From Chiloscyllium plagiosum (lineage: Eukaryota), in NCBI RefSeq assembly GCF_004010195.1, contig NW_025214733.1, forward strand, positions 1 through 50,000: DNA of 50,000 bases, given 5' to 3'. The stretch's first letter is position 1. Each line of letters begins with the position of its first letter. Shown here in pieces: positions 1-44,289 of this stretch. The translations under genes were made by a program, and so were the position numbers. The notes beneath the pieces were generated by a model that had not been told where the DNA came from, did no database searches, and saw only the letters and a program-made list of their open reading frames with translations.

Positions 1-1559
1 ACTTGCAGATCCAGAAGGTAGGAAGATGTTCAAAAACTTTGGAAAGGAAAAGCAAGGAAGAGGTGGGTGATAGTTGGCAAAGAATGGAGGAAACAAGGAA
101 TGTTTCATTAAGAGAATCAATAAATGCAGATTTGAAGAAGGGAAAGAGAGTGAAGCAATTGTTTAATGCACTACTTTTATCACTGGAACACAATTGTGAG
201 ACAAAAGTTCATGAGTGCATTAAAATAAAAATAAACTACAATTTTCCAAAAAAATGAAAACCAATAAATGCAAAGTGGTGTGAATTTACAGAAGCAGCTT
301 CTGAAAACTCAGATTAAGAAAATTGTAATGGGCTGGAGTTAAAAAATGAAAACAAGTACATCAATTGAGGTTTTTTTAAAATAAACTGTGAAGTCTCTCA
401 CTTTAGAGAAGATGCCCCTAAATTTGCATGAAGACACTTTTTTTGGTTGTAACTGGTGAAAGAAGATCATTTACTTCAACTAGAATGTGAAATGTCATTC
501 ACTGAATTGTTTCCTGTTCCACTCCTGCTGTTTTCTCTTGTTTGCACTCCAGCTGAGGTCTACTAAATCATTTGACTAGATATTTGGCCTCTGGCTCTTT
601 ATTCCTTTGTTTCCTACCCTGGCAGACGGTCTATTAAACTCTCTAACCCATTCACATTTAAACATCCTGCTGCTTTGGCATGAAGAAGGAAAGCATTTGA
701 ATGATCTTTCAATAACTCAACACAAACACAGCCGCCAGGTCACCAGAAAACATTTTAGCATTTTCTTTCCTTGTTATTTTTATATATATAAAGCATTGAA
801 CTAATCGCTCACTGTATCTGTAGCCATGTTGTCACTGCTGATTCAAACTGTTGTTTATTGTGGTATCATCAAAAGTGAAAAACAGGCCTCACTGAAGCTT
901 CTCCATGAACTTTCATGTCTCTGCTGGAAAGAAATATTTGAGTGTCAAGACATGAATGATGCAAACACAATCACCTTGTCAAGAGTCAAGAGTAGCTTTA
1001 TTTGTCATTTCTACCATATACAACTGATAGAGTAAAAATGAGACAGCATTTCTCCAGGACCAAGGTGCTACATGGACAACTCACACTACACGATCATACA
1101 CAGGGAGGCATAAGAAGTGAAATACACGCAAGACAGCTCAGTAATTCCTGGCATGTCAAGGCAATAGGCACAGTGGTGTGCAAATTAGAGTGTAAAACAA
1201 GAATGATAATTAATAAAATGTTGTTCTAGCAGCAATTTGAAGTCGTGTAAAGAGTTTCAGATGGAATAGAGTGCAATCATACTGTGTTAAGAAACCAAAT
1301 GGATCAGGGGAAGAAACTGCTGCACAGTCTGGCCGTGAGAGACCGAATGCTCCGGTAACTTCTGCCAGATGGCAGGAGGGAAAAGAGTTTGAGGGATGTG
1401 TGGGATCTTCCACAATGCTCTGAGCCTTTTGGATGCAGCAGCAGCTCAGGGTACTCTCAATGAACCCTCTGTAAAATGTGGTGAGGATGAGGAGTAGGAG
1501 GTGGGCTTTCCTCAGTCTACGCAGAAAGTAGAAACACTGCTGGGCTTTCTTGGCTGTGG

Positions 1560-1776
1560 TTTTGGATTAGTGGTGCTGGAAGAGCACAGCAGTTCAGGCA
1601 GCATCTGAGGAGCAGCAAAATCGACGTTTCGGGCAAAAGCCCTTCATCAGGAATGGAAGGGCTTTTGTCCGAAACGTCGATTTTGCTGCTCCTCGGATGC
1701 TGCCTGAACTGCTGTGCTCTTCCAGCACCACTAATCCAAAATCTGGCTTCCAGCATCTGCAGTCATTGTTTTTACC
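1560..1776. mobile_element. Palindromic Penelope-tail mini-insertion (family A) with 15-bp TSD
   Basis: Arms ~1560-1646 and ~1656-1741 are reverse complements. TSD CTTTCTTGGCTGTGG at 1545-1559 and 1777-1791. The sequence matches the 3' tail of the Penelope elements at 34270-34725 and 48322+. Confidence 0.9.
1617..1654 (-). ncRNA. Minimal type I hammerhead ribozyme motif, intact core
   Basis: Minus strand reads AUUC-CUGAUGA-A-GGGC-UUUU-GCCC-GAAAC-GUC-GAUU: both conserved core boxes, a 4-bp helix II, and palindromic ACGU in place of helix III. Confidence 0.75.
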
Positions 1777-3029
1777 CTTTCTTGGCTGTGGAGGTGTTGA
1801 GGGTCCAGGTGCGATTCTCTGCCAGGTGGATGCCAAGAAATTTGGTGCTCTTCATGATCTCCACGGGGGAATGTCGATAACCAGCAGAAAGTGGTCACTT
1901 CATGCCCTCCTGAAGTTAACAACCATCTTTTTCATTTTGTCCACATTCAGAGACAGGTTGTTGGCTCTGCATCAGTCCATTAGCTGCTGCACCTCCTCTC
2001 TGTATGCTGACTCGTCATTCCTGCTAATGAGACCCACTATAGCCGTGTCATCGGTGAACTTAATGATATGATTTGAGCTGTGCATTTCTGCACAGATGTG
2101 TGTCAGCAGGGTGAACACGTATGAACTGAGCACATAGCCCTGGGGAACCCCTGTCCTCAATGTGATGGTATTGGGGATGCTGTTCCCAATCCGGACTGCC
2201 TAAGGTCTCCCAGTCAGGAAGTCCAGGATCCAGTTACACAAGGAGGTATTTAGGCCCAGCAGACTCAGCTTCCAATCAGCTGAGGAATGATAGTGTTGAA
2301 TGTGGAACTGAAACCTCTGAATAGTAATCTGACATAGGTGTCCTTCTTCTCCAGGTGGGTGAGAGCCAGATGGAGGGTGGTGGAAATGGCATCATCTGTT
2401 CAGTGGTTTGGACATTATGTGAACTGCAGGGTGTCCAGTGAGGGAGGCAGCAGTGTCTTAATATGCTTCATCACGAGCCTCTCGAAACACTTCATGATGA
2501 TGGATGTTAGCGCAACAGGGCGGTAGTCATTGAAACAGGACGCTGAAGGTGTTTTGGCACAGGCACAATGGTAGCTGCTTTGAAGCATGTTAGAACTATG
2601 GCACAGCTCAGGGAGATGTCCATGAGAACATATGTCAGTATGTCAGAGCATCCTCTGACCACTCTGTCAGGAATGCTATCTGGTCCAGCAGCCTTACATG
2701 GGTTGTCTCTGCATAGGATTTTCCTCATGTCAGTGTGGTAAGACACAGCACCTGGTCATTGGGATGGGGTGTGGTCTCCCTCGCTGCCACATCATTTTGT
2801 GCCTCAAACCGTGCATTAAACTCATCTGGGAAGGAAGCATCACCACCACAAGCAGGCAATGCTGTTCTGTGGTTGCTAATGGCCTGAATGCCCTTCCACA
2901 TGTAACCAGACAAGGGGGACTGCAGTCACTGTAACAGTTACTGAGATGTCTCCCTGTTCATTATTGTGGGGAAGGTCTTTGATTGCATTGCTCTGATTGG
3001 ATTGCAGACTGTGACATCACAAATATGAA

Positions 3030-3265
3030 CCACAAAGTCCTGGGTTCAAGTCTGGTCTAGGGCTTGAGTACACACAAAGCAAAACCAAAAGGGATACTCC
3101 AGTACAGTACTGAGAATTTACACAAGGTCCCACCATTCAGGTAGTTGTAAAAGATCCCACCCACCTCGAAGAAGGGCAGGGGAGTTGTCCCTCTGATGTC
3201 CTGGCCAATATCTAACCCTCGACTGACATCAGAAAAAGCACATTATCTGATCATGATCACAATGT
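3030..3265 (+). mobile_element. Deu-domain SINE (SacSINE1/AmnSINE1-like), decayed
   Basis: B-box GGTTCAAGTC, followed by GTAAAAGATCCCA...GAAGAAGGGCAGGGGAGTTGTCCC...GTCCTGGCCAATAT, which I recognise as the DeuSINE central domain. A related minus-strand fragment lies at ~13855-14020. Confidence 0.7.
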
Positions 3266-42400: not shown

Positions 42401-43379
42401 CACGACACAGAAATACTTATCTCTGCCCCTGACTTTAGAGGCTGTGCCTGGAGCCTGTTGATAAAATTGTTTAATCTTTGGCCATTCCCAGCTGTGTTGG
42501 TTTTTTAAATGTGTTTAGTTCTGTTGTACGGATTTCTTGCAAACCTCTATCTATATGAAAATGTCTGCGGTATTTAAAATTGCTGTATTGGCGTTTTTTA
42601 TTGACACTGGTTGGCCCTCCAATCTTATGATCTTGGTGCTTTCATTCTGGGCACTTTTATCTTTGTGTGTTCATCTTTTTTTCGCTTTCAACAAATGAAT
42701 TATTGTCCTACCACCTCCAATCTGGTACACAATTGATAGTGGGATTGTTTCAGACTGAATTAACTTTGGTGTGCTGAACACAATCCATTTTTATAATGGT
42801 GGGGAGGACAATGATAGTGACACAGTAAGCATGTCAGTGAACTAGTAATGCTTTGGGGATGTGGACTTAAACCTACCAAATCAGCTGGTCAAGATATCAC
42901 CTTGGTTCAAGACTGCCACCAGCTGTTGTCTGCTGTCTCCTATTGCACCTAGCTCCTACCAAAGGTCATACTCTACCACTTTCACGACTGCTTGCAATAC
43001 CTTCCATCACTTGCTCTCAACCACTCCAACCAACCACATCACTCATGCTGCATGGACATTGCACTGTCTACTCTTTTGCGTGGGGCAAATCACCACTTTG
43101 CCCCCACCTGCACCAGTACTAACAGCTGTGCCAGCCACTTAAACCTCCCTTAATACCTTAATTTATTTTATAACCAGAGATAATCAAATGGTGGGCTACT
43201 TGACTTTTGGCTCCTAATTGCGAAGGAGAGGGCCCTAATCCTGACTGTTTCAAGTGGCTAACTGATTATGTCTAAGTCTGTGGACTGGAATTTGAGGGTG
43301 TCTTGGAGTAACAGTGCTGGAACCTGCTGACTGTGGGCTGTTTCCCTTGCCATGATTGTTGTTGGTGCTCATGTTAAGC

Positions 43380-43550
43380 AGTTGAAAAATGTGGTGCTGG
43401 AAAAACACAGCAGGCCAGGCAGCATCCGAGGAGCAGGAGAATCGACGTTTCGGACATAAGCTCCTCAGATGCTGCCTGGCCTGCTGTGTTTTTCCAGCAC
43501 TACATTTTTCAACTCTGGTCTCCAGCATCTGCAGTCCTCACTTTTTCCCA
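43380..43550. mobile_element. Palindromic Penelope-tail mini-insertion (family A) with ~14-bp TSD
   Basis: Arms AGTTGAAAAATGTGGTGCTGG / CCAGCACTACATTTTTCAACT. TSD GCTCATGTTAAGCA (43367-43380) versus GCTTATGTTAAGTA (43551-43564). Confidence 0.88.
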
Positions 43551-44289
43551 GCTTATGTTAAGTATCCTGGCTTTGTGTCAACACCAAATGGCAAAGCAAG
43601 ACAGAAGTACTGTGAGCTTGGTAGCTCTGGCTGAGAGGCAAAGCACATTAAGGCAAGGTAAGGATGAGCATCCAGGTGGGCTCAAAGTGAGTGAGAGCCA
43701 TGAGAGTAAGCAAACAGCAATGAGATGCAGCCTGTTCTGAGCTGTGAGCTGGGTGTCTGTCCCTGTGGGTATAGTATCTTTGCAGCAACATTGCAATGAT
43801 AATTGCAGATGCAACCTGTGGTGTAGTTTTATAGTGCAGCGGTATGCTAGAAGTGGATCAGAAATGTGCCATGATGATTTAGAGGGGCTTGCAAGTGGTG
43901 CCTAGATCCATGGACATACAGTCACTGCCCATAGAGCATGTTCTGACATGCTGGTATTAGATGTCCAGAATGGAGATCCTTGGGAATAACTGGGGACCTG
44001 AAATCACCAGGCACCCATGTTAGGGTTTATTGGTTTCATTTTTTTTTCATGATGGGTAGGAGAATAAGAGAAGGAATATTAATAAGATAAAATCTGCAGT
44101 TTATTAGGCTGATAACAAAATCTCCCTTTTAATAAGTAGCTCACCACTCCTGAACAAGAATCTTGTTTTGACATCTGGAACTCTGTTAGGAAATGTAGGT
44201 TTTTGCTCCTGCTCGACTTCTCATGTGATTCTCTGAGATTTCTTGCCATAGCCCATATCATTTAGATACCTATCAGATTCTGTCCAAAA

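Follow-up and report, generated by a model that had tools for sequence, protein, structure and literature searches.

Short head-to-head insertions of Penelope-like element ends in a bamboo shark, with a modest apparent excess of inner ends immediately upstream of a predicted hammerhead

For EN+ Penelope-like elements (PLEs), insertions have been described which combine an inverted, 5'-truncated copy with a head-to-head junction, a tail of 30-40 bp at one end, and a target-site duplication (TSD) (PMC3846280; PMC8557442). How Penelope elements form inverted as well as tandem ends was called still open by Craig 2021 (PMC8557442). The Anolis Poseidon PAc protein nicks each of the two target strands and extends them, with reverse transcription starting at two internal sites which bound the tail (Frangieh 2024, PMC11167929). 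The hammerhead of this lizard element cleaves upon protein addition, hammerhead mutants leave insertion and insertion size unchanged in vitro, and the lizard RNA-seq has no reads starting or stopping at the hammerhead cut (PMC11167929). In D. virilis, Penelope carries an internal promoter as well as an intron whose end lies at helix I (PMC2377424; PMC4209133), and Cervera and De la Pena 2014 (PMC4209133) describe opposite-strand hammerhead pairs 100-700 bp apart along with many truncated solo copies.

The shark insertions considered here lie in a window of 50,000 nucleotides, i.e., the whole stretch analysed (Chiloscyllium plagiosum, contig NW_025214733.1). They resemble the inverted-pLTR-plus-tail insertions of EN+ PLEs (Arkhipova et al. 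2013; Craig et al. 2021) in layout and in having the hammerhead within the pLTR; this insert layout, that is, is already published for EN+ PLEs and is not new. Unlike the rotifer examples, as excerpted, the shark inserts are only 120-220 bp in length and have no ORF, with TSDs of 12-15 bp versus 8-10 bp (PMC3846280; PMC8557442). With Poseidon PAc the shark element would share two reverse transcription start sites around the tail, nicking and extension of both strands, and dispensability of cleavage (PMC11167929). PAc, however, is Penelope/Poseidon whereas a Cys linker of Neptune/Nematis type is present in the shark element, and genomic inversion and truncation ends are not mapped in the excerpted text of Frangieh et al. 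2024 (PMC11167929). As with the minimal hammerheads of metazoan PLEs (PMC4209133), the core is minimal, helix I short and helix III a palindromic stub, though the excerpted Cervera and De la Pena 2014 (PMC4209133) has neither breakpoint analysis nor sharks. Non-LTR retrozymes are similarly short, non-coding hammerhead pieces from PLE pLTRs (Li et al. 2026, bioRxiv 10.64898/2026.07.22.740005). Retrozymes are head-to-tail tandem repeats, whereas the shark inserts are single head-to-head inversions with TSDs, and the copies within the window take the form of inverted pairs and solos rather than head-to-tail tandem hammerhead units. In L1 twin priming, synthesis of a further cDNA is primed by the second target strand, which results in a 5' inversion within a TSD, and the two arms copy mostly different RNA parts. 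The shark arms instead both copy the same 50-90 nt; the 33258-34727 insert resembles L1 twin priming. What goes beyond the known layout is, modestly, an apparent surplus of inner ends directly upstream of the hammerhead.

The short repeat represents the 3' terminus of an RT plus GIY-YIG Penelope-like element, and the Penelope origin proposed by the first-pass annotation is thereby supported: the repeat adjoins an RT plus GIY-YIG ORF, with tblastn using the bamboo-shark RT plus GIY-YIG protein P0001 matching 48615-49700 (E 2e-65), directly upstream of the pLTR. The EN fragment has 691 protein matches at E<=0.001, including ORFs of 827-883 aa with a C-terminal GIY-YIG as well as, in 1 of 3, an RVT_1 match. 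Pfam finds GIY-YIG weakly on the window fragment (E 0.046) and at E 4e-6 to 3e-4 in relatives, with no RT match in the window fragments. A C-x4-C-x2-C linker is seen in 33183-33677 as well as in P0018, P0077 and P0136, i.e., the CX2-5CxxC linker between RT and EN that characterizes Neptune, one common to Nematis too. The EN+ features include a single ORF, upstream of the repeat, in which RT precedes a C-terminal GIY-YIG, an optional tail of 30-40 bp, and an inverted 5'-truncated copy with TSD. A homologue search found nothing. A 19-nt family motif was matched at 48 metagenome loci and at 0 viral loci, and the metagenome matches were dropped as chance: none extends to a real copy, with the best reaching 20.5 bits versus 79-124 for window copies.

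A minimal hammerhead motif is predicted within the pLTR by a descriptor of our own, which has nine matches, four of them at the expected site in tail copies (1650, 5166, 18913, 20905) and the other five probably chance; several copies carry core mutations in this predicted hammerhead. Rfam gives no hammerhead match, its 10 matches all being miRNA-like hairpins below gathering that only reflect the hairpin shape. Folding of four tail copies shows little or no gain over shuffles (z 0.69, 0.41, -0.98, -1.96), and a predicted body-tail stem enclosing the tail-less end has 17 pairs, 0 of them compensatory.

Table 1. Penelope-like copies and their parts in the window; offsets are relative to C3
Feature	Positions	Strand	Details
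Insertion 1	1560-1776		Antisense arm then sense arm, TSD on both sides
Insertion 1 TSD	1545-1559 (left) / 1777-1791 (right)	+	15/15 match
Insertion 1 tail-less arm	1560-1655	-	Whole minimal hammerhead motif (predicted), C3 at 1650; inner end ~-5
Insertion 1 tail-bearing arm	1656-1776	+	Inner end +5; tail 1742-1776 (35 bp)
Family C insertion	3820-3939	+	Tail-less arm 3820-3867 (-), tail-bearing arm 3868-3939 (+)
Family C insertion TSD	3808-3819 / 3940-3951		12/12 match
Family B inverted remnant	5139-5213	+	Arms 5139-5161 (-) and 5162-5213 (+), C3 at 5166
Insertion 2	6610-6803		Host: CR1-like 3' end
Insertion 2 TSD	6595-6609 (left) / 6804-6818 (right)	+	15/15 match
Insertion 2 tail-less arm	6610-6698	-	C3 at 6693; inner end ~-4 to -7
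Insertion 2 tail-bearing arm	6699-6803	+	Inner end +20; tail 6771-6803 (33 bp)
Solo family A copy with tail	~18912-19038	+	Start ~1 nt ahead of C3
Solo family C copy without tail	19191-19243	+
Solo family A copy without tail	20869-20996	+	Extends to ~-37
Family C insertion, reverse orientation	28255-28404	-	TSD decayed, 11/13
Its tail-bearing arm	28255-28329	-
Its tail-less arm	28330-28404	+	Extends into hammerhead
Decayed PLE RT/thumb/Cys-linker fragment	33258-34270	-	Inverted versus adjoining 34284-34727
PLE ORF end, pLTR, hammerhead, tail	34284-34727	+	C3 at 34601, core mutated
Family B copy	36041-36171	-	Tail-less arm 36041-36134 (-); no TSD
Insertion 3	43380-43550		Arms 53/55 identical
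Insertion 3 TSD	43367-43378 (left) / 43551-43562 (right)	+	11/12, alternatively 12/14
Insertion 3 tail-less arm	43380-43459	-	Inner end ~+10
Insertion 3 tail-bearing arm	43458-43550	+	Inner end ~+37; tail 43515-43550 (36 bp)
Decayed PLE: RT, linker, GIY-YIG, pLTR, hammerhead, no tail	48324-50000	-

Insertions 1-3 (Table 1) share one design, that is, a tail-less antisense arm followed by a sense arm carrying a 33-36 bp tail, inside TSDs scoring 15, 18 and 9, respectively, versus a maximum of 8 among 400 random position pairs; a clear TSD is present in 4 of 11 stretches tested. The first-pass annotation had the design right, along with two of the three TSDs to which it had assigned 14-15 bp, the third being less exact (Table 1). 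The TSD of insertion 2 is 18 if three letters common with the arm end are included. Excision of insertion 1 plus one TSD copy leaves a LINE-like host ORF in continuous frame, and retention of both TSD copies repeats five residues of that ORF. The same design had been claimed for copies of two other families. At 3846-3941 it holds, with bounds corrected to 3820-3939 and an overlooked TSD added, and at 28255-28404 it holds in reverse orientation, with a TSD which is decayed (11/13; score 7, as reached by 5 of 400 controls); at 5139-5213 the inverted arms are present but both outer ends, the tail and a TSD (score 3) are missing, so that the design is shown only in part. In the family B copy at 36041-36171 the tail-less arm is followed by a short additional antisense hammerhead piece and then a tail remnant only. 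A solo copy said to begin at 18915 is there, with its start moved to ~18912.

Tails are 33, 35, 36, ~38 and 40 bp in length, and the two outer ends, with versus without tail, are separated by 33-40 nt. Arms are 93-98% identical inside one insertion versus 73-83% across insertions, with 84/86 positions identical in insertion 1 and, in insertion 2, 47/47 in the outer part along with an 8-nt deletion and 2 changes in the inner part; at the insertion 3 junction ~2 nt are common to both arms. Letters common to both arms and absent from other window copies occupy 7, 1 and 2 columns (insertions 1, 2, 3). Later gene conversion could be another source of the identity of paired arms. In every intact pair (5/5) each arm holds sequence absent from its partner, i.e., an inner extension versus the tail, which excludes simple fold-back, and in all five the tail-less arm extends further inward: inner ends (tail-less/tail-bearing) are at -5/+5, -4/+20 and +10/+37 in insertions 1-3, and in family C at +5/+44 (28255) and +38/+47 (3820). 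Insertion 2 and the solo copy at ~18912 have 93-94% identity, but an inverted arm is present in the former only, and the positions of inner ends are not the same (+20 and -4 versus -1), which bears out the suggestion that each insertion formed separately. That differing junctions argue against one amplified MITE is a weaker point than had been supposed: the junctions do differ, but insertions 1-3 are different subfamilies.

Offsets are numbered relative to C3 (C3 at 34601; -4 is 34597) and were read by eye, to ~+-1 or more coarsely where microhomology is possible, with those of family C set tentatively by analogy with family A; 18 ends were counted, leaving aside the tail-only arm at ~36144-36171 and the decayed copy 3505-3601. 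The predicted ribozyme cut is after +27. No end in the window falls at +24..+31 (0/18), and the predicted cut is passed by 13 of 18 arms, 5 of the 6 in insertions 1-3 among them, so that hammerhead cleavage as what stops reverse transcription, as had been proposed, is contradicted. Ends instead occur at 0.016/nt from +47 to 0, at 0.106/nt at -1..-10, and at 0.002/nt beyond, with one of the three arms passing -10 ending within 300 nt. Of eight arms retaining the whole core, five end 1-10 nt upstream of it (p 0.003, for small n and a -1..-10 window picked after data inspection); restricting to the firmest ends, those fixed by an abutting arm, it is three of six (p 0.048). This excess lies at the far edge of the ribozyme, which suggests run-off at an RNA 5' end. 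Position -4, in copies 34601 and 5166, is the A of an initiator-like heptamer. The companion proposal, that hammerhead structure sets the stop, is in its simple version a poor match, as reverse transcriptase is at the 5' exit, where the excess lies, only after copying the entire ribozyme. That most inner breakpoints are no more than a few tens of nt away from the hammerhead stands (16/18 arms), but is near-automatic with arms of just 48-121 nt.

Three DNA sequencing runs and one RNA run were aligned to the PLE end at 34284-34727, with 50690, 39648 and 43696 contigs aligning in the DNA runs. In the top-supported joint among the best 15 of 169, an opposite-strand arm ends at 34597 (-4), with support from 8, 7 and 10 contigs plus 6 RNA reads. 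Run X5 has 288 contigs with loose ends before 34597, their consensus A+T-rich and of low agreement (0.31); the RNA run, X21, has 212, with a pLTR-like consensus, and many of these loose ends therefore continue upstream. Position 34597 is absent among those listed for runs X1 and X11. Tail-less and tail 3' ends both are abundant, and head-to-tail repeats, from 34722 back to 34640, are found in 7, 3 and 5 contigs. Both 34597 and 34637 are also alignment clip points, however, because sequence upstream of the hammerhead varies among subfamilies; two long window copies have 38-79% identity there versus 84-88% at the hammerhead. Contig depth drops ~250-fold or more across the C-rich stretch, which every ORF-bearing copy must cross, so depth tracks divergence from the reference and was rejected as a truncation profile. 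In the RNA run no position emerges at which molecules start or stop in large numbers, and this speaks for neither side; a search for RNA runs covering 1300-11000 listed none. The read data are consistent with run-off at -4, but confounded.

The inserts probably are heavily 5'-truncated ends of EN-bearing PLEs, resulting from two short reverse transcriptions, off of both nicked strands, that are joined head-to-head. One nick would prime at the tail site and the other at the tail-less site, the second template perhaps being the same RNA or a sister RNA, and both cDNAs would stop early, to be followed by end-joining with 0-5 nt overlap. It is quite possible, if short of probable, that cDNAs extending through the hammerhead frequently terminate 1-10 nt past it because the template RNA starts there, with the run-off product then comparable to retroviral strong-stop DNA. 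Alternatively there may be no hot spot, with steep ordinary 5' truncation plus upstream divergence mimicking a pile-up of ends. The hammerhead is ~100-130 nt from the start of reverse transcription, contig depth follows divergence, the X21 loose ends are pLTR-like, and n is small, all as such truncation would have it; we nevertheless view it as unlikely, as ends in insertions 1 and 2 and at 5162 are set by an abutting arm rather than by alignment, only one of three arms past -10 ends within 300 nt, and the X5 loose ends are A+T-rich and heterogeneous. Somewhat less likely still is structure-driven pausing followed by a strand switch at microhomology, whether by folding of the hammerhead complement in cDNA or upon entry into the upstream C-rich tract (G-rich cDNA). 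A C/T-rich tract does start immediately upstream of the hammerhead, stem II of insertion 1 folds at -11.4 kcal/mol, and overlap at that junction could reach 5 nt if subfamily upstream letters match, but stalling on RNA structure is expected at the 3' entry, and the rate there shows no increase (0.016-0.017/nt), and shuffled sequences fold about as well as the tail copies.

Fold-back self-priming, maybe on an antisense template and as proposed for rotifer Penelopes (PMC3846280), could form the inverted arm and would account for letters unique to paired arms; it is improbable here, an extra template switch being needed to give each arm of the 5/5 intact pairs its private sequence. Self-cleavage creating an RNA end is much less credible than that, as the ends avoid the cut and the lizard ribozyme mutants and RNA-seq speak against it (PMC11167929), notwithstanding a predicted minimal motif whose lizard counterpart does cleave with protein. 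Least credible of all is a MITE mobilised by a DNA transposase. Hairpin shape and great abundance would fit, but rather than terminal inverted repeats with a short fixed TSD one finds TSDs of 12, 12-14, 15 and 15 bp and a tail that lies beyond the inverted repeat at just one side; there are three junctions for three subfamilies, and this sequence is also found in solo copies, in head-to-tail repeats, and joined to RT/EN. Within the window no internal junction is identical across copies; in the read data, joints merge at clip points. The first-pass preference for retrotransposition over a DNA-transposon MITE thus is upheld by long, variable TSDs, one-sided tails, and an RT/EN parent.

A broader reading, which we consider doubtful, is that shark Penelopes record genome-wide a strong-stop-like intermediate, i.e., reverse transcription passing through an uncleaved hammerhead and off of a capped 5' end a few nt past it, with a second reverse transcription trailing. 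Were that true, then reverse transcription would start in the 5' pLTR, with the second coming from the tail site of the same RNA, failed template jumps would have become fixed in the genome as stumps and hairpins of 100-220 bp, in the tens of thousands, and these fossils would map transcript start and priming order. If the excess of ends and the asymmetry of arms hold genome-wide, then this abundant shark family would permit a sequence-only test of mechanism. For annotation, these inserts are to be treated as PLE stumps rather than as MITEs or miRNA hairpins.

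The inserts are genuine and are rightly ascribed to Penelope retrotransposition, as the first-pass annotation proposed, all of the stretches which it named being present in the window. The repeat of family A, the tail-repeat family that includes insertions 1 to 3, runs upstream into a decayed ORF both at 48324-50000 and at 33258-34727, and the GIY-YIG endonuclease fragment matches 691 relatives at E<=0.001, including ORFs of 827-883 aa with a C-terminal GIY-YIG. A C-x4-C-x2-C linker points to a putative Neptune or Nematis affinity, as judged against Craig 2021 (PMC8557442). Families B and C lack an ORF in the window and are assigned provisionally, i.e., B by motifs common to family A and C by its same layout. 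The family is highly abundant, with 50690, 39648 and 43696 contigs from three DNA runs aligning to the window reference copy (34284-34740). The family A repeat carries a minimal hammerhead motif ~95 nt from its tail-less end; an Rfam search did not detect the hammerhead. The long insert at 33258-34727 displays an L1-style 5' inversion, an antisense RT/thumb/linker fragment meeting the sense ORF end, terminal repeat (pLTR) and tail at a G run, with no target site duplication (TSD) found there. Also present are three copies, 74-84% alike, of another dispersed repeat of ~290 bp (30359-30643, 39416-39700, 41202-41406).

Inverted inserts, their arms and their TSDs (matches/length; scores from 400 random position pairs reached at most 8)
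Insert	Position	Layout	TSD	TSD score
Insertion 1	1560-1776	antisense tail-less arm, junction, sense arm + 35 extra bases	15/15	15
Insertion 2	6610-6803	antisense tail-less arm, junction, sense arm + 33 extra bases	15/15	18
Insertion 3	43380-43550	antisense tail-less arm, junction, sense arm + 36 extra bases	11/12 (or 12/14)	9
Family C	3820-3939		12/12	
Family C	28255-28404	as insertions 1-3, orientation reversed	decayed	

Clear TSDs were seen in four of the eleven stretches tested, these being insertions 1-3 and the first family C insert, and excising insertion 1 with one TSD copy restores an unbroken frame in its LINE-like host ORF. The design claimed to be shared by the three insertions stands, with the TSD imperfect at insertion 3. 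The same design recurs, reversed, in the second family C insert; the first, previously placed at 3846-3941, is real but was wrongly bounded; and at 5139-5213 (family B) neither tail nor TSD was found. In the CR1-like host of insertion 2 (6333-7000), an internal stretch just past the target site is apparently missing as compared with the CR1-like copy near 31270-31623.

Arms are 93-98% identical within an insertion versus 73-83% between insertions. In all five intact pairs the tail-less arm extends further in, with the tail on the other arm only; as each arm thereby has sequence absent from its partner, neither is a plain copy of the other. Double priming on RNA, one per target nick and one per RT start, as suggested by lizard biochemistry, may account for this asymmetry, which could reflect similar synthesis lengths or, instead, a second RT trailing the first. 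Frangieh 2024 (PMC11167929) describes nicking and extension of both target strands, a tail bounded by two RT starts, and hammerhead mutants without effect on insertion. A predicted body-tail stem would enclose the tail-less end (compensatory pairs, 0; z-scores weak).

Inner ends, 18 in number, were read relative to C3 of the hammerhead core, with offsets good to about ±1. These are, for family A, -5, +5, -4, +20, +10, +37, -1, -37 plus two long copies; for family B, -4, +9, -3; and for family C, where they are partly set by analogy, +5, +44, +38, +47, +35. The proposal that hammerhead cleavage sets where reverse transcription stops is contradicted, since none of the 18 window ends falls within +24..+31, i.e., around the predicted cut, and 13 of the arms pass it. 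Ends accrue at a flat 0.016-0.017/nt across and below the ribozyme, at 0.106/nt at -1..-10, and at 0.002/nt further upstream. Five of eight core-keeping arms end at -1..-10 (p 0.003, post hoc window), as do three of six when only ends fixed by the abutting arm are counted (p 0.048). An end of the template RNA fits this better than a structural stall, as the RT meets that edge only once the ribozyme has been copied. Position -4 is, in two families, the A of an initiator-like heptamer.

A strongly decayed family B-like copy (3505-3601) apparently starts ~3 nt ahead of the core, and at 36135-36147 a second short antisense hammerhead piece lies between a family B arm's inner end and a tail remnant, resembling a repeated template switch. 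A pyrimidine tract (34500-34592), whose terminal CAG lies ~9 nt ahead of the core, may be a splice acceptor like that of D. virilis, but the AG is missing from the 48401 copy. According to Schostak 2008 (PMC2377424), the promoter in D. virilis is internal and an intron of 75 bp lies 46 bp past the start.

Reads aligned to the reference bear on the -4 stop in both directions. Counting for it are the top-supported joint among the 15 listed of 169, in which each of the four runs has one arm ending at 34597 (-4) on the opposite strand, together with the 288 loose ends there in run X5, their flanks heterogeneous and A+T-rich. Counting against it, however, 34597 and 34637 double as alignment clip points, with upstream sequence divergent among subfamilies; 212 loose ends at 34597 in RNA run X21 resemble pLTR; and 34597 is absent among the rows listed for runs X1 and X11. 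Directly ahead of -4, most of the X5 loose ends carry G where the reference has C; this G could be a copied cap, but clipping selects against C there, and insertions 1 and 2 are without an extra G. For RNA, the raw depths are 1001 at 34611 and 46-56 at the ORF end, from which no rate is derivable because DNA contig depth at the ORF end is already ~36-41% of that at the hammerhead. Both 3' ends, with and without tail, are seen, as are short head-to-tail units (34722 back to 34637-34658, in all three DNA runs); tandem retrozymes feature in Li 2026 (bioRxiv 10.64898/2026.07.22.740005).

Craig 2021 and Arkhipova 2013 (PMC3846280) report insertions whose 5' end bears an inverted, 5'-truncated copy and one end of which has a tail of 30-40 bp, rotifer examples having TSDs of 8-10 bp, and Cervera 2014 (PMC4209133) gives opposite-strand hammerhead pairs spaced 100-700 bp. 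The window inserts are mostly a miniature form of an already published layout, to which an excess of inner ends immediately 5' of the hammerhead makes a modest addition.
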